Virus record (IMG/VR): IMGVR_UViG_3300049437_000042
Span: 1 to 41,682 of that record
Source: a virus
Length of the DNA: 41,682 nt
Strand: one strand, 5' to 3'
Shown: positions 2,074 through 41,682 of the stretch, one piece after another
How positions within the stretch are numbered: position 1 is the first letter of the stretch
Layout of the letters: each line of letters opens with the position of its first letter
The notes under the pieces: generated by a model
Seen by the model: only the letters and a program-made list of their open reading frames with translations
Told to the model about the DNA's origin: nothing
The model's database searches: none
Position numbers and translations under genes: made by a program

Positions 2074-4683
2074 GTGGTCGACATGATCGCAGGATCGGTC
2101 TTTACCAACATTTTCGGGATGATTCCGCCTGGTGACGACCGAGTGGTCCGGGTGGCCAAGGCTGCGGCGGCGGCCGGGTTCGCCGTGGTCGCCTGCAAAC
2201 CCGGGCAGAAAGTCCCGATGTGCACCCTGACCGCGCGCCAGGCGGTCACAGCCGACCGGCAGGCCAGTGAGGCAGCGGGCCGAAAGGTTCGGCATGCCTG
2301 CGGCATCGCTCACGCCACCACTGACCCCGCAGTGGCTGCTAGGGTGTTCGCCCGCCTGGTCGCGCAGAACGGCCCGGTGAACCTCGGGGTCGAGCTCGGG
2401 GCGTCCCGGATGGTCGTGGTGGACGTCGACACCAGGGAGGAGCGGGAGGCGTTTCTGGCGGACTGGTCGACCGCGAGCGGCACGGATCAGTCCGCTCGGA
2501 CGCCCACGGTGCTGTCCCCCGGTGCGCTCCGGGTCACCGATGGCACACCAGACCCGGTGTGGGTGCACAAGGATGGCGGACACTTCTGGTTCACGCTGCC
2601 CGATGGCGTCACGCTGCCCACCGGGTCGGGAGTGCTCAAGCACCCGTCCGGCTGGACCGTCATGTGGGCTGACCACCAGGTGTTGGTCCCGCCATCGGTA
2701 CGTCCAGAAGGTCCGTACCGGCTGACCGGGCAGGGGGAGCCTGCCCCCGCCTGGTTGACCGACTTGGTGATCATGGAGGCGGACGCCCGAAGTATCCGCA
2801 TGTCCGCCCGCGCTGACCGGGCGTTCGACTCCGGCGATCCACTGGAACGGTGGAGCGCGACCACACCCTGGTCGACCCTGCTCGAACCGGACGGGTGGAC
2901 CGACACCGGACTGGTCGACACCTGTTCATGTCCCATCTGGACGGCACCGGGAGCGCACGCCTCCCCCAAGTCGGCGACCGCTCACGACGTGGGCTGCACC
3001 CGGTTCGACGTCGAGACCGGTTGGGGACCACTGCACGTCTGGACCGACAACCCCCCGCCCTGGCTGGCCGGCCGGAACACCTGGACCAAAGTGGGGTACC
3101 TCTCGGCCCGGGACCACGACGGGAACCACCGGGACGCCATGGTGGCCGTGGGGATCATCGCTCCGGATGCCTCGTTCGACTTTGATCTTGACTTCGAGGT
3201 GCCGGAAGACCCTGCCCCGCAAGAACCGCCCCCGGAACCAGCGGGGGAGCGCTCCCCCGCTCCGACAACCGTGCTGGACCGGCCGGAGGTGGACGAGTTC
3301 GACCTACCGGGCGGCCCCGAACCGGCTCAGCCGGCCGCCCCCGCCTCCCACGCACCGGGTGGGCTGGCCAACCTGCCTGAAGACTTCTGGGCCGCCAGGG
3401 TGGCGCTCAAGCACATCAGAACCGCCAGCCTGGCGATGATGTGCAGCCCGGACGCGTTGCTCGTGGCGACCCTGGCCAGGCTGGCAGCGATGCGTCATCA
3501 CCGGATCGTGCTGGACATCGGACTCGGGGAGACCGGGCTGAACCTGATCGTGTGCCCGGTCGGCCCGTCGTCGTCCGGCAAGGGCATCGCCATGGCCGGA
3601 GCGGCACTGCTGATCCCGCGGGAACTGTGCGCCTCCGGTGCGCACGACGGAATCGGTATCGGGTCTGGTGAGGGCATCGCCGAGGCGTACATGGGCCGTG
3701 AGCAGGTTGACACCGGTGAGACGTACAAATCGGGGGACCGCAAAGGGCAGCCCAAGATGCGGGAGGTTCGCGCGCAGGTGCGACACAACGCCCTGTTCGC
3801 GATGGATGAGGGGCAGGCCCTTGGTCAGATGTCCGCCAGGGCAGGGACCACGATCGTCACGGCTCTGCGGTCGGCTTGGTCATGCGCCACGATCGGTCAG
3901 GCCAACGCCCGCGAGGACACCACCCGCTCCATCCCGGCCGGGACGTACTCGGCTGGGTTCGTGCTGGCCTTCCAACTGGACACCGCCGCTAGCGTGCTGG
4001 CGGACACCGATGGGTTGGCCCAACGTGCCCTCTGGGCGTCAGCCACCCATCCCGGGGTAACCGCGGACATGGTCGAGCACCCCGGGGCGTTGGCGGACGT
4101 CATCACCGGGTGCGACCCGTTCGACGGAGGCGGAGGCGGCATCACGATGACCTTCCCCCTGGAGATCCGGACGGCGTACCGGGAGCATCGGGCCGGCGTG
4201 CTGCGGGGCGAGATCGAACAGGACCCGCTGGACGGGCATGGTCCGCTGGTCCGTGCCAAGGTTGCCGCCCTGCTGGCTCTGCTGGACGGCCGGGTGACCC
4301 CCGCCCGTGAGGACGTCGAACTGGCCGGTGTGGTCTGGCGGACGTCGTGCCGGGTGCGCACCCACCTGGCGGAGCGTTCGCAAACGGTGGCGCAGGAAGC
4401 GGCACGGGCCCTGGCCGTGTCCCGTGCGCTCCCCATCGTCATCGCTCAGCAGAAGATCGAAGAGGGCACCGACAAGCGGGTCGAGCAGTCGGCGCGCACC
4501 CTGTCCCGCCACGTGCACGCTGCGGGCCCGGGGGGTCTGACGCACCGGGACGCCCGCAAGACGATGAAGTCGACCATGCGCGGGCAGTACGACGCCGTCC
4601 GGGACCACGCGGAAGCGATGGGGTGGATCGTGGTTGGCGAGGGGCCTACACCTGGACTGGCGCCAGGGTGTACCGCTCCGTAG
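2074..4683 (+). CDS. Prim-pol (bifunctional primase/polymerase) fused to a D5/DUF3987-like P-loop NTPase
   Basis: 869-aa ORF. N-terminal prim-pol-like signatures: MVVVDVDT, GGHFWF, VLVPPSVRPEGPYRL. A Pro/Glu-rich linker follows. The C-terminal part has P-loop GPSSSGKG and a Walker B-like LFAMDEG. Confidence 0.85.
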   Translation: MVDMIAGSVFTNIFGMIPPGDDRVVRVAKAAAAAGFAVVACKPGQKVPMCTLTARQAVTADRQASEAAGRKVRHACGIAHATTDPAVAARVFARLVAQNGPVNLGVELGASRMVVVDVDTREEREAFLADWSTASGTDQSARTPTVLSPGALRVTDGTPDPVWVHKDGGHFWFTLPDGVTLPTGSGVLKHPSGWTVMWADHQVLVPPSVRPEGPYRLTGQGEPAPAWLTDLVIMEADARSIRMSARADRAFDSGDPLERWSATTPWSTLLEPDGWTDTGLVDTCSCPIWTAPGAHASPKSATAHDVGCTRFDVETGWGPLHVWTDNPPPWLAGRNTWTKVGYLSARDHDGNHRDAMVAVGIIAPDASFDFDLDFEVPEDPAPQEPPPEPAGERSPAPTTVLDRPEVDEFDLPGGPEPAQPAAPASHAPGGLANLPEDFWAARVALKHIRTASLAMMCSPDALLVATLARLAAMRHHRIVLDIGLGETGLNLIVCPVGPSSSGKGIAMAGAALLIPRELCASGAHDGIGIGSGEGIAEAYMGREQVDTGETYKSGDRKGQPKMREVRAQVRHNALFAMDEGQALGQMSARAGTTIVTALRSAWSCATIGQANAREDTTRSIPAGTYSAGFVLAFQLDTAASVLADTDGLAQRALWASATHPGVTADMVEHPGALADVITGCDPFDGGGGGITMTFPLEIRTAYREHRAGVLRGEIEQDPLDGHGPLVRAKVAALLALLDGRVTPAREDVELAGVVWRTSCRVRTHLAERSQTVAQEAARALAVSRALPIVIAQQKIEEGTDKRVEQSARTLSRHVHAAGPGGLTHRDARKTMKSTMRGQYDAVRDHAEAMGWIVVGEGPTPGLAPGCTAP

Positions 4684-5347: not shown

Positions 5348-5840
5348 ATCACGGGTCAAGATCTGCAAAGACTGCCCGACCGACCGGCGGGGGAAGCCTC
5401 GACCGGCCCCGTACCCGGGCCCCCGGTGCGCCACGTGTCACCGGGGGCACAAGCGGTCCTCACGTGAACGTGGACGGGACAACCGGGCCGCTCGGGTCTA
5501 CGGGATACCCCCGGGCACGTATGAGGCGCTACGGGCCGCTCAAGGGGGCGTGTGCGCGGGGTGCGGACCGCGGACCGGTCGCAACGGAACCGGGCGCCGG
5601 AGGATGGCGGTCGATCACGAGCACAACCGGCGGGGGTGCACCCATCCCCCGGAGACAGGCTGTCCGCAGTGCGTCCGGGGTCTGCTGTGTTCCACGTGCA
5701 ACCAGGCCATCGGCGACTTTCGGGACGATCCCCTTACGCTGCTCAGACTGGCGCTGTACCTGGTGAGACCCCCCGCACGTGCGGTGCTGACCAATGGCTC
5801 ATTATTCGATCAACGTGTACGATGCGAACATGATACGTAG
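5334..5840 (+). CDS. Endonuclease VII family (Holliday-junction resolvase-like) protein
   Basis: 168 aa with the family pattern YGIPPGTYEALRAAQGGVCAGCG ... VDHEH ... RGLLCSTCNQAIGDFRDD. Confidence 0.85.
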   Translation: MPIGESRVKICKDCPTDRRGKPRPAPYPGPRCATCHRGHKRSSRERGRDNRAARVYGIPPGTYEALRAAQGGVCAGCGPRTGRNGTGRRRMAVDHEHNRRGCTHPPETGCPQCVRGLLCSTCNQAIGDFRDDPLTLLRLALYLVRPPARAVLTNGSLFDQRVRCEHDT

Positions 5841-8127: not shown

Positions 8128-8148
8128 ACTGCTGCGTGGGTGATGGGA

Positions 8149-8200
8149 GCACAAAGAGAGGCCCGGTACCGCCGATCCGGTACCGGGCCTCTCTTTGTGC
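8149..8200. terminator. Bidirectional intrinsic terminator
   Basis: Perfect 22-bp stem GCACAAAGAGAGGCCCGGTACC / GGTACCGGGCCTCTCTTTGTGC with an 8-nt loop. It sits between the convergent terminase gene (+) and the reverse cassette (-). Confidence 0.8.
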
Positions 8201-8207
8201 CTACTGG

Positions 8208-34193: not shown

Positions 34194-34289
34194 TTACGCC
34201 TGGTTGAACCGGTTGGGGTTGATGGAGCCTCCGATCAGACTCGGACGCCGCTTGACGGGACCACCCATGGTCGCGTCTCCGCCCTTCAT
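34194..34289 (-). CDS. 31-aa ORF with strong SD (uncertain)
   Basis: GGGAGGTGAGTAC precedes an ATG. Peptide MKGGDATMGGPVKRRPSLIGGSINPNRFNQA. It is not in the supplied ORF track because it is short. Confidence 0.35.
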   Translation of the reverse strand: MKGGDATMGGPVKRRPSLIGGSINPNRFNQA

Positions 34290-34395
34290 GTACTCACCTC
34301 CCGTCGTGTAGACGCTGGCCTAACCCCTCACCAGCACATCGAGGCGCACAGTACTCTGACGCACTTGCGCGTGTGCATCACCCCGATTTCCCGCG

Positions 34396-34474
34396 TGGGA
34401 TGGACAGGATTTGAACCTGTGACCTCGGAACATCTAGCCCGGGTGTCCGTGCTCTGCCACTGAGCTACCATCCC
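34396..34474 (-). tRNA. tRNA-like gene 1 (canonical acceptor, D and T arms; expanded anticodon arm)
   Basis: Minus strand reads GGGATGG TA GCTCAGTGGCAGAGC A [CGGACACCCGGGCTAGATGTTCCG] AGGTC ACAGGTTCAAATCCTGT CCATCCC A. The bracketed arm is 24 nt where 17 are expected. No CCA is encoded. Confidence 0.5.
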
Positions 34475-34556
34475 TTGGGTACTCGGGATCGGCAACCCCC
34501 GAGTACCTTCATCCGGTCCTGTGTACTTCGCCATACCGGGAGGCGCCATTGCCCCG

Positions 34557-34694
34557 TGCCCGCTGAAGGGTTCGAACCCCCAACCATGCTCGGTACCGCC
34601 GTATCGGCGGTACTTCCCGTGTCGACCCGGTACTTGACGGGCGATACGACGGTGTTGTTCCGAGCATTGCTCTGCCACATTGAGCTAAACGGGC
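34557..34694 (-). ncRNA. tRNA-like gene 2 with ~66-nt insertion in place of the anticodon loop
   Basis: Acceptor GCCCGTT / AGCGGGC, D arm TAGCTCAATGTGGCAGAGCA, T arm GGGGGTTCGAACCCTTC. The perfect 8-bp stem ATGCTCGG / CCGAGCAT encloses a structured insert that includes the hairpin GTACCGCC-GATAC-GGCGGTAC. Confidence 0.5.
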
Positions 34695-34700
34695 TTAGTA

Positions 34701-34759
34701 GTACCGGGTGGTGGTTGCAGGGCAGCTATCACAATGGAAAGTGCGCCACCACCCGGTAC
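34701..34759 (-). ncRNA. Long perfect hairpin in the non-coding locus
   Basis: 14-bp stem GTACCGGGTGGTGG (34701..34714) / CCACCACCCGGTAC (34746..34759) with a 31-nt loop. Confidence 0.5.
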
Positions 34760-34883
34760 CGTGCCGTCTTTCCGGCTGTCATCGGTTTATGCTCGACAGC
34801 GACCTTTCACCCCTCCGTTCGTTCCGCTAGTACCCCTCTGGGGCCCGGAGCGTTACCTACTTCGGTAAGGGCTACTCATGTCG

Positions 34884-34978
34884 CGGGTATCAGAGGATTC
34901 GAACCTCTGCTCTTCAGTTCCGTTCCCCTCTCGCCAGAGGAGAGTCAGGAACCGTGTGCGCCAATACACCAACTACCC
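34884..34978 (-). ncRNA. tRNA-like gene 3 (95 nt; anticodon-type hairpin on an extended helix)
   Basis: Acceptor GGGTAGT / GATACCC (one mismatch), D arm GTGTATTGGCGCAC, T arm AGAGGTTCGAATCCTCT. The hairpin CTCTC-CTCTGGC-GAGAG would present CUG, but it is stacked on an extra GTTCC / GGAAC helix with a TGA bulge. Confidence 0.45.
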
Positions 34979-35021
34979 TGTTGCCCGGACTCGGGAGAGC
35001 GACCAACCTATCCGTATTTCG

Positions 35022-35090
35022 CTTCCTGGTGAGGATTCGAACCTCACAGGCCCGTAAACGGACTCCCCTGGTAGGTACCTACCCTAGGAA
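35022..35090 (-). ncRNA. tRNA-like element 4 (weak)
   Basis: T arm TGAGGTTCGAATCCTCA, acceptor TTCCTAG / CCAGGAA (one mismatch), atypical D hairpin GTAG-GTAC-CTAC, and a GTCCG-TTTA-CGGGC hairpin instead of a 7-nt anticodon loop. Confidence 0.3.
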
Positions 35091-35246
35091 ACCGGCTCTC
35101 TTACGCCCAACCGTGCATGACGTCTGTGTCAGAGCCGGACACGCACCGGATCGCCAGTTACGACCTGGTGACACCAGCTGACCGGGACACCCTGAACCGG
35201 CCTACCAATGGAGAACCCACTCCGTCGCGAATGGTTCTCTCCGGCG

Positions 35247-35287
35247 GGAAGGGATCGGGTGGACGGGTTGAACACCCGATCCCTTCC
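35247..35287 (-). ncRNA. Long perfect hairpin in the non-coding locus
   Basis: 15-bp stem GGAAGGGATCGGGTG / CACCCGATCCCTTCC with an 11-nt loop. Confidence 0.5.
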
Positions 35288-35445
35288 GGGGGAAGACCTT
35301 ACGGTGATCACGAGGTGCGGGTAGCTACCGAGATGGTCTCTCGGCTTCAACATCTCATCTCACGATCACCGTATGGAATTCTCAAAATCCGTGTGTACCG
35401 GTCGCCTCCGGCCCTTGTGGGGCCCTTGCCTTCCGAACAAGGGGA

Positions 35446-35474
35446 ACGCTACCAGGTGCCCCCGAATGCGTCAA
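35446..35474 (-). promoter_or_regulatory. Candidate promoter for the structured-RNA locus
   Basis: Minus strand reads TTGACG - 17 nt - TAGCGT, directly after the exonuclease stop. Confidence 0.4.
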
Positions 35475-35488
35475 GTCACTTACAGATG

Positions 35489-37555
35489 CTAGTTTTCGAT
35501 CTCGCGCAACCGAGCCTTGGATGCGTCCCCGTGCTGGTCAGCCGACCACAGACCCCGAGCCTTCATCACCTTCCAGATCTGGATCAGCCGATCCTTGGTC
35601 CCTGCCTCCAGGATGTGCCGCAGGATGTCGCACCGGATGCACCGGTCACCGAACTCGTACACCGGTGACCCGCACGGACACCGCACGATGACCTCTCCGG
35701 GCAGAACGTAGGTTCCTAGACCGTCCGCCCACACCTCGCCGGTATCTGGGCTCAGAGGACCGTACAGACCCATGACCGCAGGTACCCGCTCTTCCACGTG
35801 GGGGTCCCACGGTGAGGCGGGCTCCTCCACCGCGGGGGGCTCGACCACGGTCGGGTCAACCGGCCACTCCGGCGCCTTCCGGGACTCGTGCTCGACCCGT
35901 TCCGCGGCCAGCCGGGTGAAGACCTCCTCCCTAGCCGGTTCGGGGGTGACGACCGGAGCGGCGACCGCCTTGAGGTGAGCGACGATGGGACGCCCCCGCT
36001 CCTCAATCTCGGCCGGCGTGACCACCCGATGCTGCTGGACGCACACGTCAGCCCCCGACGCAGTGACCCCGTTTGAGTTGATGATCGGTTTGGTGCACGC
36101 CAGGCACCAGATCTGCGTCTTACCTTCCTGGTCCGGTTCCGGTCGGTGCGTCGGATCGAGCGCGAAGAAGCGTGCCACGGGAGCCGGGTCTGGCGTGACC
36201 ACGACCGGTTCCTCTTCACTGACCGAGGTGAGTTCCGGCTCGACCCGGGTACGCCGGCCCCGGGGCGGGGCGCCGATGCACCCGCGCTTGTGCGTGACCT
36301 TCCCGTTCCGGCATGGTCGCTCACACACCGGGCACGGTTCGCCGTCCGGTACGTGGACCCACTCCGACCCGATGCCGCTCCGGTGCAACGCATGCTCCCC
36401 CTCCACCACGCACGGAGTGTGGTACGACGGGTGTCGAGCGGGACAGGTGGGCGCCGGTTCGTCCGGTGCGGTCAAGACCATCGTCACCGGTTCGTCCACG
36501 ATCAATGACCCCTCGATCGTGAGGGTGCCGGCCACGGAGACTGGTTCAGCCGGCCGGGAGAACCGGACCGGGGCGTTCGGGAGATCGAGTTCATCCGGGC
36601 CGAACGCCCCGGTCACCTGGTCCAGCGGCACCGATACGGCCACGTCCTTCCGGCTCCTCCACTCCCGCACCGTGCAGGCCAGTGCCAGCGAGGCTCGACC
36701 CGCGGTCAGGTCGACCGCATGCAGGGTGGCCGTGACATGATCTTCCGGGTCCTTCCGGATGGGGATGTGCGCGATCAGGGCCACGTCCTTGCGGAGGCGT
36801 TCGGGCAGCGGTTCGTACGTCCGGGTGCCCGGAACCCACATACCCATGGCGTCCACGTAGCAGGCTTGCTGACCCGCTATCTCCTGCCAGCCGTACCCGA
36901 GTTCGTCTCCGGTCTTGATGTCCAGATCGACGTACTGACCAGGGTGCAGCGTCACCAGGTGGCCGGTACCCATCCGGATCGTCAGTGCCCGGGTCACCCT
37001 GGCCAACCGGTCGAACGTGCCCGCCACGTTCCATTGGGGTACCGCCACCACCCGTTCGATGAACTCGGGGGACATGCGCAGTCCGGAGCGGGACATCAAC
37101 TCGGAGTACGCCCGCACCTCCGGCGCCCACAACTCGGGGACCGAGATGTCGTGCCCGCGGTCTCCCTGCTCGCAGAACGCGTGGATGGCCGACCCGAGCA
37201 GGGCCCGTGCCTTGGCTCCCGCAGCAGTCTGCGCCTCCCGGACCAGTTGGTTCAGGGCGTTCCGGTCGGTCGGGTCGGTCGCTGCGATCATCGCGTACAA
37301 CGATGGGTTGCTGACCAAGCCCAGCACGGTCATCCGAAGGTCCCACAAGTGCAGGAGGTGATCCCCGGAAGCGGCCTTGACCAGCGTGGTGACCCGGGTG
37401 AACACCCGGTCGAAGCGCTCCGGGTCGTCCGGGTCGGGCAGGATGTACCGGCCGTAGTGGTCGCGCCGGATGGCCCGGGGGTCAGCCTCGATCCGGGGCC
37501 GTGCGGGGGTAGGCCCGGGGTCGGGAAGATCAAACATGTCATCAATCTCAGCCAT
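35489..37555 (-). CDS. PD-(D/E)XK (RecB/Cas4-like) exonuclease fused to a Cys-rich C-terminal domain
   Basis: 688 aa from an ATG preceded by GAGAGG. Nuclease motifs: GSAIH, GTFD, VDLDIKTG, QQACY. The C-terminal ~350 aa carries several CxxC-type clusters (CPVCERPC, CLAC, CPCG...CIRC). Confidence 0.75.
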   Translation of the reverse strand: MAEIDDMFDLPDPGPTPARPRIEADPRAIRRDHYGRYILPDPDDPERFDRVFTRVTTLVKAASGDHLLHLWDLRMTVLGLVSNPSLYAMIAATDPTDRNALNQLVREAQTAAGAKARALLGSAIHAFCEQGDRGHDISVPELWAPEVRAYSELMSRSGLRMSPEFIERVVAVPQWNVAGTFDRLARVTRALTIRMGTGHLVTLHPGQYVDLDIKTGDELGYGWQEIAGQQACYVDAMGMWVPGTRTYEPLPERLRKDVALIAHIPIRKDPEDHVTATLHAVDLTAGRASLALACTVREWRSRKDVAVSVPLDQVTGAFGPDELDLPNAPVRFSRPAEPVSVAGTLTIEGSLIVDEPVTMVLTAPDEPAPTCPARHPSYHTPCVVEGEHALHRSGIGSEWVHVPDGEPCPVCERPCRNGKVTHKRGCIGAPPRGRRTRVEPELTSVSEEEPVVVTPDPAPVARFFALDPTHRPEPDQEGKTQIWCLACTKPIINSNGVTASGADVCVQQHRVVTPAEIEERGRPIVAHLKAVAAPVVTPEPAREEVFTRLAAERVEHESRKAPEWPVDPTVVEPPAVEEPASPWDPHVEERVPAVMGLYGPLSPDTGEVWADGLGTYVLPGEVIVRCPCGSPVYEFGDRCIRCDILRHILEAGTKDRLIQIWKVMKARGLWSADQHGDASKARLREIEN

Positions 37556-37577
37556 GGGTACCTCTCGTTCAGTGTGA

Positions 37578-37611
37578 CCTGGTCCGGGCCCCGATCGAGG
37601 CCCGGACCAGG
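37578..37611 (-). terminator. Hairpin between the helicase and exonuclease genes (attenuator/terminator candidate)
   Basis: Perfect 13-bp stem CCTGGTCCGGGCC / GGCCCGGACCAGG with an 8-nt loop. Confidence 0.5.
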
Positions 37612-37617
37612 CGTTCC

Positions 37618-39342
37618 TCACTTGCTACGGATGTCCAGAAGCCGGCTGGCGAAGTGGATCGAGATCCTGTCCCCGACGTCGCCCCGGCTCATGCCTTCCT
37701 TGATCTTCAGTCCTTCCCTGGCGCACAGACTGGTCTGCGCTTCCGATGGCTTGCGGTACTTCTTACGCCAGGCTGACGACCGTTCCGAGACGGAGGCGTC
37801 CAGCCCTGTGGCGATCGCCTCCGCAATGGCCATGGCGTATTCCTGCGGAAGACCCCCTCGCAGCCACCCCCACATGGGCGAGTTCGGCCACAGCCTCTTG
37901 TCAGAGTCGATCTTGATACGCATCGCTGCCACACCGGTCCGGCGGTACTGCGTCGCCGTCTTGCCGATCAACCAGGTGTCCGGCGCCGCATCGGCCCGGG
38001 TGTCCGGGGACAAGAAGATGTACCCCGATTTGGTCGGGATGAACCAGACCCCGCCGTCCGTGCGCAGCCACGCCGACTTGGACGATTTGAACAGGTCAAC
38101 CACCTGACTGGTGATCTCACCGGTCACCCGGGCATTGACCGCAGGGGGAGTCTGCCCGTCCGACTCCAGCCGGGTCAAGGCATCGGTCAGGCTCTCTCCG
38201 TCTTCCACGGTCAGACCCTCACGGGAGACTAGGTCGGCGGGACACGCCAACCGGAGCCGTCCGGCCACCCCGACGATGTCCAGCACCATGGCTGAGATCT
38301 TCCCGGGCCACGTCCGCAGCACCCGGCCCACCATCTGGACGTACAACCCGACGTTGGTCGTGGGTCGCCCGATGATGGCCAGGCTCAGCTGTGGAAGATC
38401 GAACCCCTCCGTCAGCACCATGCAGTTGGAGATCATCATCGTCTCACCGGACCGAACGCGAGCGTAGATGTCCGCGCGCACGTCCAGCGGGGTGTCCCCG
38501 GTGATGACCTCGGTGGGAATGCCGGCGGCGTTGGCTGCCTGGTAGAACCCGAGTGCGGCAGCGACGGACGGCCAGAACGCGATGCCCTGCCGCAGGTTGC
38601 CTGCCTCGTCCTTGCCGTGTTCCAGGTACGCCTGCATGGTTACGCCGAATACGTCGGACGCCACCATGGCGTCCCCGAGTGCCCCCGCCTGGTAGTCACC
38701 CGCGGTCCGGGCGACGTCGGACAGGTCCAGCCCATCGACCATCACGGTACGACCGGTGACGTCCACCAGGTGACCACCGAAGATGCCGAACTCGATGCCG
38801 CGCTCGATCGCTACGGTCTGCCAGACGTCACCGAGTACCTTGTCGTCACCCCGGACCAGAGTGGCTGTGAAGCCGATAGCGCGTGATTCGGTCTCCGGGG
38901 TGAAGCACCCGAAGTACTCCATGGTCTCGACATAGGTACGGGCGGCAGCGTGATGGCACTCGTCCACGATCACCCGATCGAACCGGTCGGGGTGGATCTG
39001 GCTGCGACGCGACTCCCGCCCAACGGTCTGCACGCTGGCCACCACGGCGTCGAACTCGGGACCGAACTCGTTGCGTTCTGCTTTGACGACACCGACCCGC
39101 AAGTGGGGGGCGATGGCATGCAGTTTGGCAACGGCTTGCTGCACCAGTTCGTCCCGGTGCACAAGCACGAGGGGTGCCCGACCGGCATCAACAGCAGAGA
39201 TGATGAAGTTACTGAAAATGACCGTTTTGCCGAGTCCCGTTGCCATCACCACAGCAGTGCGCCGGACGCCCCGATCAAACTCGGCATCGATCGCGCTCAA
39301 CGCTTCTGTCTGGTAGGGCCGGAGCGGAAACGTCGTCTGCAT
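37618..39342 (-). CDS. SF2 DEAD/DEAH-box DNA helicase
   Basis: 574 aa. Motifs: MATGLGKT (I), VDECHH (II), FTATL (III), QMVGRVLR (VI). A C-terminal extension of ~190 aa follows. Confidence 0.92.
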   Translation of the reverse strand: MQTTFPLRPYQTEALSAIDAEFDRGVRRTAVVMATGLGKTVIFSNFIISAVDAGRAPLVLVHRDELVQQAVAKLHAIAPHLRVGVVKAERNEFGPEFDAVVASVQTVGRESRRSQIHPDRFDRVIVDECHHAAARTYVETMEYFGCFTPETESRAIGFTATLVRGDDKVLGDVWQTVAIERGIEFGIFGGHLVDVTGRTVMVDGLDLSDVARTAGDYQAGALGDAMVASDVFGVTMQAYLEHGKDEAGNLRQGIAFWPSVAAALGFYQAANAAGIPTEVITGDTPLDVRADIYARVRSGETMMISNCMVLTEGFDLPQLSLAIIGRPTTNVGLYVQMVGRVLRTWPGKISAMVLDIVGVAGRLRLACPADLVSREGLTVEDGESLTDALTRLESDGQTPPAVNARVTGEITSQVVDLFKSSKSAWLRTDGGVWFIPTKSGYIFLSPDTRADAAPDTWLIGKTATQYRRTGVAAMRIKIDSDKRLWPNSPMWGWLRGGLPQEYAMAIAEAIATGLDASVSERSSAWRKKYRKPSEAQTSLCAREGLKIKEGMSRGDVGDRISIHFASRLLDIRSK

Positions 39343-41476: not shown

Positions 41477-41669
41477 GGCACGTGAGCGCTGGATCAGGGT
41501 CTACCCGGACCGACGGTGGCCTAGGGAGTGGACCTACCAGTGCCGGATCTGCGGGCACACCCCTGCGAGACTCGATCTCACCTGGACCAACAGCGGTGCC
41601 GCTGCCGATGCGGGTTGTAGGCACCTCTTCGTGTACCACGACAACCAAGACGTCACGCCCACGCAGTGA
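41469..41669 (+). CDS. Small Cys-containing protein (possible Zn-ribbon)
   Basis: 66 aa from a GTG that overlaps the previous gene by 8 nt. YQCRICGH ... GCRH. Its 3' end is duplicated at 1..114 by the terminal overlap. Confidence 0.5.
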   Translation: MSEARERWIRVYPDRRWPREWTYQCRICGHTPARLDLTWTNSGAAADAGCRHLFVYHDNQDVTPTQ

Positions 41670-41682
41670 TGGGACCGGTGTT
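41556..41682. repeat. Terminal direct repeat, copy 2 (identical to 1..127)
   Basis: Exact 127-bp identity with the first 127 bases of the window. Confidence 0.9.

Follow-up and report, generated by a model that had tools for sequence, protein, structure and literature searches.

The locus described here lies in a phage genome, IMG/VR virus record IMGVR_UViG_3300049437_000042, analyzed over its full length of 41,682 nt (hereafter, the window). It stems from a JGI metagenome (contig Ga0496022_0000422). Since a direct repeat of 127 nt is present at both termini (positions 1-127 and 41556-41682), the window represents a complete genome, assembled as a circle, with a length of 41,555 bp. Among its genes are those for a portal protein, capsid, terminase, family A DNA polymerase, primase-polymerase, helicase, and Cas4-like exonuclease, and its proteins bear only a distant resemblance to those of actinobacterial phages. 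Within the replication gene block (helicase, exonuclease), approximately 1.15 kb of the minus strand separate the exonuclease stop (35489) from a micro-open reading frame (micro-ORF) of 31 aa (34289-34194). Positions 34396-35474 of this interval form a structured non-coding stretch with four tRNA-like modules, E4, E3, E2, and E1 in the 5' to 3' direction; the G+C content of the locus is 59%, compared to ~65% for the phage genome.

A sequence-only reading had described the locus as non-coding, and the statistics agree: GC differences between codon positions are 0.02-0.25 inside the locus vs. 0.23-0.47 in the flanking genes, and substitutions relative to a sister phage are distributed over the three phases as 44/36/33, that is, with no 3-periodicity. 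This sister phage, L009, is a 40.5-kb Logan contig with the one close homologue of the window exonuclease (82% identity, search P0002) and a gap of 1.36 kb at the same place. The aligned columns of the locus are ~87% identical without indels, with blocks of 92-97%, and the DNA of the flanking genes is 81-86% identical. Two blocks, of 76 nt (35257-35182) and 71 nt (34804-34734), are invariant.

Comparison of the two phages provides the covariation check that had been proposed for this locus, yielding 9-11 double compensatory changes. The RNAalifold structure of the window and L009 contains 283 gap-free pairs, of which 253 are invariant, 19 have one-sided changes and still pair, 11 are double compensatory, and none is broken; substitutions affect 19% of the unpaired and 7% of the paired positions, the latter thus changing 2.6-fold slower. 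As the RNAalifold structure is fitted to both sequences, the test was repeated with the structure predicted from the window alone. Nine double-compensatory pairs were then observed, against 1.7 on average and at most 6 in 2000 trials in which the same number of substitutions was redistributed at random, and 0-3 in a second control with the 3' partner slid by 1-3 columns. Of the changed pairs in this structure, 30/58 are still paired (null 21.2 +/- 3.8), and the ratio of kept to broken pairs is 30/28 on the minus strand vs. 23/36 on the plus strand. Several stem changes, e.g., in hairpin A (Table 1), are G.U-compatible on the minus-strand transcript only. The compensatory counts, the strand asymmetry, and the G.U changes together show that the locus specifies a structured minus-strand RNA on which selection acts.

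The protein database has just two clusters for the 155-aa neighbour protein. All six contigs that encode exactly this protein show 100% identity over the locus and hence add nothing to the comparison. The whole locus produced no blastn match in 50,697 phage records, and searches from single window proteins found no related locus. No comparable gap is present in Streptomyces phage Dagobah, the closest cultured relative by the portal protein, nor after the exonuclease in Mischief19 and KYD2. A pattern match in L014 was rejected as a chance match inside coding DNA.

Four tRNA-like modules without anticodon loops

The four T-arm signatures noticed in the sequence-only reading are indeed present, as a family of direct repeats at plus-strand positions 34405-34419, 34566-34580, 34893-34907, and 35031-35045, and every module adopts a cloverleaf-type fold, with minimum free energy (MFE) z-scores of -2.0 to -3.0. 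The acceptor stems, read earlier as 7 bp throughout, are so in E1 (GGGATGG/CCATCCC) and E2 (GCCCGTT/AGCGGGC, one G.U), whereas the seven positions of E3 (GGGTAGT/GATACCC) include a G.A mismatch and the 7-bp helix of E4 (GTTTCCT/AGGAAGC) requires one or two extra nucleotides or a 6-bp T stem. Modules E1, E2, and E3 also carry U8, the GTTCRA T loop, and, as noticed before, a canonical D arm with A14 and G18G19, and thus have all parts of the L shape; E4 lacks the D loop and has a 5-bp hairpin with a GUAC loop in place of the D arm. A standard anticodon arm, i.e., a 5-bp stem and a 7-nt loop that has U33 and a purine in position 37, is found in 0/4 modules, just as hand folding had indicated.

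What replaces this arm (below, the cargo) differs from module to module. The arm of E1 has the 24 nt, the bulged 6-bp stem, and the 11-nt loop described before, and the Rfam alignment places 16 nt where 9 are expected; the loop, CCCGGGCTAGA (34443-34433), starts with a GC-only palindrome. In E2, whose true 5' end is 34694 rather than 34693, the perfect 8-bp stem ATGCTCGG/CCGAGCAT encloses, as claimed, 66 nt (34659-34594) that fold as a three-way junction (z-score of E2, -2.8). The module is 94% identical to its L009 counterpart, with A-U to G.U and G.U to A-U changes within helices. The rod of E3 consists of an outer helix of 5-7 bp, an internal loop, and an 8-bp helix with a GGCG tetraloop (z-score of E3, -3.0). 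The CUG-presenting 7-nt loop once proposed for E3 finds no support in the comparison, as both phages instead keep a helix of 8 bp (window) or 9 bp (L009) capped by the invariant GGCG; the outer helix has a compensatory U-A to C-G change in L009. The tetraloop hairpin ascribed to E4 is present in the window, with the loop UUUA. In L009 the acceptor helix of E4 extends to 9 perfect bp, the T arm is kept, the D-like hairpin shows compensatory changes at two base pairs, and the middle arm is replaced by a longer, different hairpin.

A separate observation concerns a 10-nt segment of the E2 cargo, AGUACCGGGU (34625-34634), which is a perfect complement of 34700-34709, the 3' strand of the upstream hairpin I3 (Table 1). 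This complementarity is kept in L009 with one G.U pair, and the segment could compete with the I3 hairpin.

Standard software recovers these modules only in part. Without introns, ARAGORN gives E1 alone, as an 80-nt "tRNA-Ala(GGC)" with a loop region 7 nt too long, and this is its only tRNA-like gene in the complete 41,555-bp genome. The Rfam tRNA model (RF00005, threshold 29 bits) accepts E1 (57.1 bits) and scores E3 below the threshold (26.7 bits, with 26 nt replacing the 7-nt loop); at E<=10, it does not find E2, and E4 is hit only by the tRNA-Sec model at noise level (15.8 bits, E=7.2). With introns allowed, ARAGORN assigns E1 to Ser-AGA (7-nt intron) vs. Ile-GAT (10-nt intron) for E1', the E1-type module of L009, and E3 to Phe-GAA (i21) vs. 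Leu-AAG (i24) for its L009 orthologue. E2 is called Tyr-GTA with a 63-nt intron in both phages, and the implied loop has neither U33 nor purine 37; indeed, no candidate intron-restored loop has U33/R37. No intron family of Rfam matches positions 34200-35600 at E<=10, and inserts of 7-66 nt are too short for a group I intron. Moreover, the expanded arms themselves are preserved through compensatory changes, the form of the E1-type arm being kept in three phages (CGGA-CA/TG-T-TCCG, CCGA-CA/TG-T-TCGG, and CGG-AGT/ACT-CTTGA-CCG). With inconsistent anticodons and conserved non-decoding arms, the modules are probably not decoders, intron-containing tRNAs, or decaying pseudogenes; all three are poor explanations of the observations.

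Cassette behavior and relatives of the modules

Modules are gained, lost, and moved between the sister phages. E1 is missing at its window position in L009 along with its 3' leader, and E1' (L009 7196-7275; Rfam 51.3 bits), a 70%-identical E1-type cassette, is inserted exactly 2 nt past E2. The T loop of E1', UACAAGU, has A at position 55, and outside the anticodon arm E1' shares 74% aligned identity with mycobacteriophage tRNA-Asn. The segment adjoining the Shine-Dalgarno sequence consists of E1 and 105 nt in the window and of hairpin I6 in L009. Hairpin A, the pre-E4 stem, and the E4 arm all consist of a closing stem with a variable interior, so that stems act as closing helices for exchangeable interiors. 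The tRNA-like units are separable and behave as cassettes.

Using E1 alone as a blastn query, we found a full-length relative, 76% identical, in Microbacterium phage PrincePhergus, where it is annotated as "tRNA-Pro(CGG)". This 86-nt element (L015 2501-2586; Rfam 52.3 bits, with 22 nt in a place for 11) is flanked by the helicase and DNA polymerase I genes, a replication-module position as for E1, and its arm has the shape of E1 and E1', a 6-bp stem with a 3'-side bulge and a loop of 11-12 nt, with two inner pairs compensatorily changed. In all three RNAs the loop starts with a GC-only palindromic hexamer (CCCGGG, GCCGGC, and CGGCCG). Such palindromes hint at loop-loop dimerization; this is a lead only, and the pattern is merely suggestive because GC hexamers are frequent in the genome, the eight GC-only palindromic hexamers being present in 18-54 copies each (~6 per kb), neither avoided nor rare.

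The slot of the PrincePhergus element is occupied in phages Bustleton and Pherbot, with identical flanks, by a different tRNA-like allele, "tRNA-Phe(AAA)", which Rfam does not recognize; the coordinates of these subcluster EA4 Microbacterium alleles are L015 2501-2586, L019 540-618 (minus strand), and L020 526-605 (minus strand). Anticodons AAA and CGG are tabulated for the Bustleton, Pherbot, and PrincePhergus genomes, which are reported to be 96-99% identical (PMC6856279). The alanine identity set, G3:U70 and A73, is present in both alleles but not in E1-E4, and PrincePhergus also encodes CCA; judging by these elements, the two alleles might be charged with alanine. In Bacillus phage 0305phi8-36, a 1.1-kb non-coding gap (L017 788-1878) holds a pseudo-tRNA (36 bits) and a tRNA shell (30.5 bits) and has no match to other Rfam families; the shell, annotated as an "intron-containing tRNA-like element", has a 9-bp stem enclosing 39 nt, which is the design of E2. 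All these elements of cultured phages are filed as tRNAs and are single modules, as opposed to four in the window.

The architecture recurs at the same position in distant phages and phage-plasmids. Exonuclease homologues with 34-35% identity (L021, L022) and further family members (L026-L028) are followed by a gap of 415-483 nt, which contains a promoter-like motif, a conserved stretch of ~250 nt of structured RNA, and a single tRNA-like module. The Streptomyces-type contigs concerned are ~34-102 kb long and include ~95-kb phage-plasmids, and one of them matches plasmid NZ_CP041606.1. The "anticodon" stems of the five modules have 5-8 bp and different sequences (CCCGG/CCGGG, CCAGG/TCTGG, CCGAGG/CCTCGG, CAAGG/CCTTG, and TCGGTG/CGCCGA), and each encloses a hairpin whose loop contains CCCC (5/5). 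Since the MAFFT alignment of these modules is out of register in places, pair counts from hand-written structures were set aside and per-sequence folds and RNAalifold were used instead; the latter detects compensatory changes in 8/16 predicted pairs. As in the window, ARAGORN calls are inconsistent (Val, none, Arg, none, and Arg).

These modules share the position and the design of those in the window; the differences are one module rather than four and a CCCC-loop cargo that the window does not have. The sequence parts in common are generic for tRNA (TAGCTCA..GG.AGAGC and GGTTCGA), and no homology was detected between the downstream proteins of the lineages. No tRNA-like module follows the exonuclease in L012, L024, L025, L029, and L030; of these, L012, L029, and L030 have leaders of 120-180 nt with a promoter-like motif after the exonuclease stop.

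Two further observations were made on these contigs. The L027 module has an extra 18-nt insert within its D loop (5632-5649), and hence cargo is not restricted to the anticodon arm. The related JGI phage contig L024 carries, upstream of its helicase gene, three tandem repeats of ~103-123 nt (2440-2790, plus strand), in each of which GCAGAGCA occurs together with a hairpin resembling a T arm, CTGAGGTTCGAGCCCTCAG; the repeats are not recognized by the Rfam tRNA model and may be another tRNA-derived repeat RNA.

Promoter-like site and the RNA between the modules

The features of the locus are collected in Table 1. The candidate promoter of the sequence-only reading is backed by conservation and not by consensus: both hexamers are identical in L009, where three spacer positions and the bases after the -10 hexamer differ, and a strict sigma-70 consensus scan of the locus did not flag them. 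We therefore treat the site as a promoter candidate. Its counterpart, a GGTTTAAx-16/17-TAnnnT motif, is located 3' of the exonuclease stop in L012, L021, L022, and L026-L030.

Table 1. Features of the RNA locus in the 5' to 3' direction of the minus strand (window coordinates)
Feature	Position	Strand	Description
Promoter-like site	35446-35474	-	Candidate -35 TTGACG (35474-35469), 17-nt spacer, candidate -10 TAGCGT (35451-35446); 15 nt past the exonuclease stop
5' leader	35373-35445	-	Small G+C-rich hairpins (GGGCCCC...GGGGCC, CCGG..CCGG) from RNAfold and RNAalifold; 85% identical to L009
Hairpin A	35301-35372	-	14-bp closing stem ACGGTGATCGTGAG/CTCGTGATCACCGT around a variable interior
Hairpin B	35247-35287	-	Perfect 15-bp stem GGAAGGGATCGGGTG/CACCCGATCCCTTCC, 11-nt loop
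Four-way-junction domain	35143-35246	-	Closing helix GCCGGA/TCCGGT, three hairpins; overlaps the 76-nt invariant block
Pre-E4 stem-loop	35093-35142	-	CCGGCTCT/AGAGCCGG, variable interior, abuts E4; 38 nt extra in the loop in L009
E4	35021-35092	-	Least tRNA-like; acceptor-like helix, short variable middle arm, T arm GAGGTTCGAATCCTC
E4-E3 spacer	34979-35020	-	Small hairpin; ~88% identical to L009
E3	34884-34978	-	Shell with 7-position acceptor, D arm GTGT/ACAC with A14 and G18G19, T arm; anticodon arm is a ~40-nt rod
Inter-module domain	34761-34883	-	Long irregular hairpin with closing helix GCGAC/GTCGC, followed by two small hairpins; shares positions with the 71-nt invariant block
Hairpin I3	34701-34759	-	Perfect 14-bp stem GGTACCGGGTGGTG(G)/CCACCACCCGGTAC; stops 6 nt before E2; one U-A is U.G in L009
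E2	34557-34694	-	138-nt shell with 7-bp acceptor, D arm GCTC/GAGC with 9-nt loop, T arm
Spacer with hairpin I6	34475-34556	-	I6 at 34507-34478, GGTACTCGGG/CCCGAGTACC; stops 3 nt before E1
E1	34396-34474	-	Near-canonical tRNA shell, 24-nt anticodon arm CGGA/TCCG + CA/TG, bulged T, 11-nt loop
E1-to-micro-ORF leader	34290-34395	-	Up to the Shine-Dalgarno sequence and ATG of the 31-aa ORF; lost together with E1 in L009 (142-nt gap)

Both long perfect hairpins noticed earlier are real, I3 with a 14-bp stem (34701-34714/34746-34759) and hairpin B with a 15-bp stem (35247-35261/35273-35287). The stem of hairpin A is kept in L009, where two G.U pairs have become G-C and U-A and ~170 nt have been added inside. 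Hairpin B is conserved as well, with two changes that turn Watson-Crick pairs into G.U; Rfam microRNA-model matches on it are spurious. RNAalifold shows a compensatory pair in the four-way-junction domain (35168/35154, C-G to U-A), and compensatory changes in the inter-module domain affect pairs 34869/34812 (C-G to U-A), 34849/34828 (U-A to C-G), and 34841/34836; the A-rich loops of its small hairpins (AGCATAAACCGA and GAAAGA) are invariant. Hairpin I6 is conserved in L009, but is located there directly upstream of the micro-ORF. The tetranucleotide GTAC is 1.7-fold enriched in 34396-35445 (11 copies; statistical support is weak) and is placed in loops (the E4 D-like loop, the E2 cargo loop) and at hairpin bases (GGTACC).

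Upstream of the locus, the Cas4-like exonuclease gene (35489-37621, minus strand) encodes a protein extended at its C-terminus by ~370 aa, which include several Cys pairs and match no Pfam family; its homologues on Streptomyces-type contigs reach 900-1270 aa (59 proteins in search P0005). The micro-ORF directly 3' of the locus (34194-34289, minus strand) has a strong Shine-Dalgarno sequence and is probably a real small gene. Elsewhere in the genome, a near-perfect long hairpin just 3' of the terminase gene (8148-8201, GCACAAAGAGAGGCCCGGTACCG...CGGTACCGGGCCTCTCTTTGTGC) is likely a terminator; it is matched by a microRNA model on both strands and has the motif CCGGTACCGG in common with hairpins of the RNA locus. 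A GDSL lipase gene adjoins the lysis genes.

Possible roles of the locus

We consider it an even bet that the locus yields tRNA-scaffolded non-coding RNAs from a promoter-driven array or leader, which are cut out by RNase P and RNase Z and whose cargo arms are functional. Transcription would start at the conserved promoter just past the exonuclease gene and run ~1.15 kb toward the next genes. The shells, consisting of the acceptor and T arm and in E1-E3 also of the D arm, would fold into an L shape, in which the anticodon arm is replaced by cargo: the bulged 6-bp stem of E1, the three-way junction of E2, the tetraloop rod of E3, and the short hairpin of E4. In the likeliest mechanism, such shells would serve as built-in processing and stability scaffolds, with RNase P acting at the 5' ends and RNase Z or exonucleases at the 3' ends. 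Two types of products would be released: stable RNAs of tRNA size or larger, whose L carries the cargo arm at its tip, and the inter-module RNAs, which are highly conserved and each close in a strong hairpin. Given that 6 nt separate the end of I3 from E2 and 3 nt that of I6 from E1, RNase P cleavage would leave them as 3'-terminal protective stems. The released RNAs would be non-decoding and might act via their cargo loops or by occupying host factors that bind tRNA. C-rich loops are used by actinobacterial small RNAs, and by analogy the cargo with the CCCC loop could provide the Streptomyces elements with an antisense seed.

Several observations weigh against this model. No tRNA-handling enzyme hinting at a pathway was found among the ~30 phage proteins scanned, and CCA is encoded in none of E1-E4. 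Recognition of E4 by RNase P is uncertain because it lacks the D loop and elbow. The cargo is conserved, though a pure punctuation role would need none, and no cargo target was identified; in particular, the sole reverse-complement match of the E1 loop in the window is its own site on the opposite strand. The RNAalifold model contains long-range pairings (35434/34515 and 35399/34548), as would be expected of a single large RNA. Finally, the close comparison of the window's own modules involves a single sister genome, and exact and degenerate pattern scans (for the D arms of E3 and E2, the arm of the E1 type, and loops in the invariant blocks) of viral, metagenome, and genome collections yielded no further copy, the metagenome collection being one without the window's own contig.

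The same transcript might function mainly as a very long cis-acting 5' leader of the downstream operon (the micro-ORF, the 155-aa gene, and so on), its modules and hairpins controlling the stability, processing, or read-through of the mRNA rather than working in trans. All related lineages have a promoter-like motif past the exonuclease stop. As this motif is kept in the module-less L012, L029, and L030, where it appears to serve the downstream gene, the RNA seems to occupy the leader of the downstream operon; in addition, no intrinsic terminator with a U-tract was detected in the locus, and the micro-ORF product has 30/31 residues the same in L009, although the upstream sequence there is completely different. 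On the other hand, the segment adjoining the Shine-Dalgarno sequence differs between the sisters, so no fixed structure of leader and Shine-Dalgarno sequence is conserved, the invariant blocks of 71-76 nt and the conserved cargo are far from the ORF, and the tRNA shells are expected to be excised, which leaves a cis-acting leader as a serious but rather unlikely explanation. It is more doubtful still that the entire 1.15 kb form one giant ornate RNA similar to GOLLD or ROOL, with tRNA-like domains as integral parts and possible multimerization via self-complementary loops. Such an RNA would account for the large size, the dense structure, and the extreme conservation outside the tRNA-like parts, and GOLLD and ROOL are phage RNAs near tRNA islands (PMC12286853). 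But the candidate long-range helices, which join the 5' region to the post-E2 spacer, show one-sided changes only, the GC palindromes that start all three E1-type loops are of a kind common in the genome, and no model of GOLLD, ROOL, or another large RNA, nor one of Y RNA, matches the whole window at the gathering threshold or positions 34200-35600 at E<=10. Inserts of ~170 and 38 nt and the E1 cassette are also hard to square with one rigid fold. Modules of a larger RNA had been offered by the sequence-only reading; as an option this is possible, and the gain, loss, and movement of whole modules fit separable units better.

Another of its options, genuine decoding tRNAs with novel short introns or inserts removed after transcription, is now disfavored. 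E1 does score 57 bits, ARAGORN calls it along with intron versions of E2 and E3, and similar elements are annotated in GenBank as tRNAs (PrincePhergus "tRNA-Pro", Bustleton "tRNA-Phe"). However, the isotypes and anticodons differ among orthologues and even between near-identical cultured phages (CGG vs. AAA; PMC6856279), the implied loops lack U33/R37, neither group I nor other intron models match, the long ORFs of the window phage are read by the standard code (table 11), and the expanded arms are under selection, as seen in the GGCG-capped rod of E3 and the covarying long stems of L021-L028; we thus regard intron-containing tRNAs as very improbable. Decaying, functionless pseudogenes or remnants of a former tRNA cluster might explain the disrupted anticodon arms, the lost D loop of E4, and the UACAAGU T loop of E1', but hardly a locus that is at least as conserved as the flanking genes, with slowly changing paired positions, compensatory double changes, and an architecture that recurs after homologous exonucleases in distant lineages. 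Decay is accordingly the least credible explanation of all. The remaining option, tRNA mimicry, is supported structurally, as the acceptor, D, and T parts are canonical and the anticodon arm is replaced; its version as a decoy against anticodon nucleases is unlikely because there is no anticodon loop to cleave. As for a feature acting at the DNA level, i.e., a replication origin, a tRNA-derived recombination or att site, or a protein-binding array, one could point to the replication gene block, the lower G+C content, the many inverted repeats and palindromes, and the fact that tRNA genes are classical integration sites. The strand asymmetry of kept and broken pairs, the changes that are G.U-compatible on the minus-strand transcript only, the canonical D- and T-loop sequences, which are meaningful in RNA only, and the lack of an integrase among the proteins scanned render this a very slim chance.

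Ordinary phage tRNAs, such as tRNA-Asn, tRNA-Trp, and tRNA-Gln of cluster A mycobacteriophages, resemble the window modules in their acceptor, D, and T arms, in their clustering, and in their location on the transcribed strand of the neighbours; they differ in that the window modules have no 5-bp/7-nt arm and no consistent anticodon, and only E1 exceeds the Rfam threshold. The tRNA cluster of T4 contains "species 1 and 2", stable RNAs of unknown function that are co-transcribed and co-processed with tRNAs; real tRNAs are present in that cluster, whereas the window phage has none. The TMERs of MHV68 are viral tRNA-like elements fused to hairpins, and mascRNA/MALAT1 likewise uses a non-decoding tRNA-like fold as a signal for RNase P and RNase Z. 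The likeness consists in non-aminoacylated or non-decoding tRNA-like folds beside stable hairpins and in multiple units arrayed in a viral genome; however, these systems are eukaryotic (with pol III promoter function and microRNA output), while in the window the hairpins precede the units and the cargo is located in the anticodon arm. The closest design is man-made: in the engineered tRNA scaffold, a structured RNA is grafted on the tRNA anticodon stem for expression in E. coli and is processed and stabilized as tRNA. This design is identical to that of the window modules, and we know of no natural phage counterpart.

In tmRNA, too, a tRNA-like domain carries a long helix where the anticodon arm would be, but the window modules have no tag reading frame and no G3:U70 (the 3:70 pairs of E1-E4 are G-C, C-G, G-C, and U-A), and the ARAGORN tmRNA search was negative for both the window locus and L009. 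YrlA and other Y RNAs, which also occur in phages, have tRNA-like D, T, and acceptor parts without an anticodon; YrlA of M. smegmatis is cleaved by RNase P and receives CCA (PMC4201824). In YrlA the parts are circularly permuted (T arm, acceptor loop, D arm), the ends form a Ro-binding helix, and the Rsr/TROVE gene is adjacent (PMC4201824), whereas in the window D precedes T, the acceptor ends are open, and Rfam gives no match. We rejected the YrlA/Ro idea, as none of the ~30 phage proteins scanned is a TROVE, RtcB, CCA-adding, or other tRNA-handling protein. GOLLD and ROOL are large conserved structured phage RNAs associated with tRNAs and of unknown function (PMC12286853); apart from the negative covariance-model search, the window locus differs from them by modular indels between close relatives.

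As tRNA-like non-coding RNAs are already known, the locus is not a categorically new kind of element. Our literature searches found no description of such a locus or of a tRNA shell with normal ends and a cargo arm, and no Rfam family corresponds to it; thus, what is not covered by Rfam or by the literature found is such a shell, arrayed and positionally conserved in phage replication modules. Tentatively, and with some doubt, we suggest that actinobacterial phages and phage-plasmids carry an unrecognized natural class of tRNA-scaffolded RNAs, in which the shell hijacks RNase P, RNase Z, and the tRNA-stabilizing machinery to make and protect its cargo. If so, the types of cargo would include C-rich seed loops (Streptomyces), self-complementary GC hexamer loops (E1 type), which could mediate kissing dimers, and a three-way junction (E2), and the modules would be exchangeable cassettes of the replication-gene block, many of them mis-annotated as tRNAs with arbitrary anticodons.

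Known tRNA-like non-coding RNAs (tmRNA, YrlA, mascRNA, and TMERs) are few, and each of them revealed new biology. Two cultured systems carry RNAs of the kind described here, namely, PrincePhergus, which infects M. foliorum, and Streptomyces sp. S1D4-14, which has a plasmid of 98.8 kb (NZ_CP041606.1). More generally, phage "tRNA" calls with odd lengths or unstable anticodons, e.g., CGG in PrincePhergus vs. AAA in Bustleton, may be something else, and such mis-calls distort analyses of phage tRNA repertoires and codon usage. If the proposed scaffold role is true, the locus would be what the engineered tRNA scaffold has as its natural equivalent in bacterial viruses, conserved through compensatory evolution and maintained at a fixed place of the replication module in several actinophage lineages.

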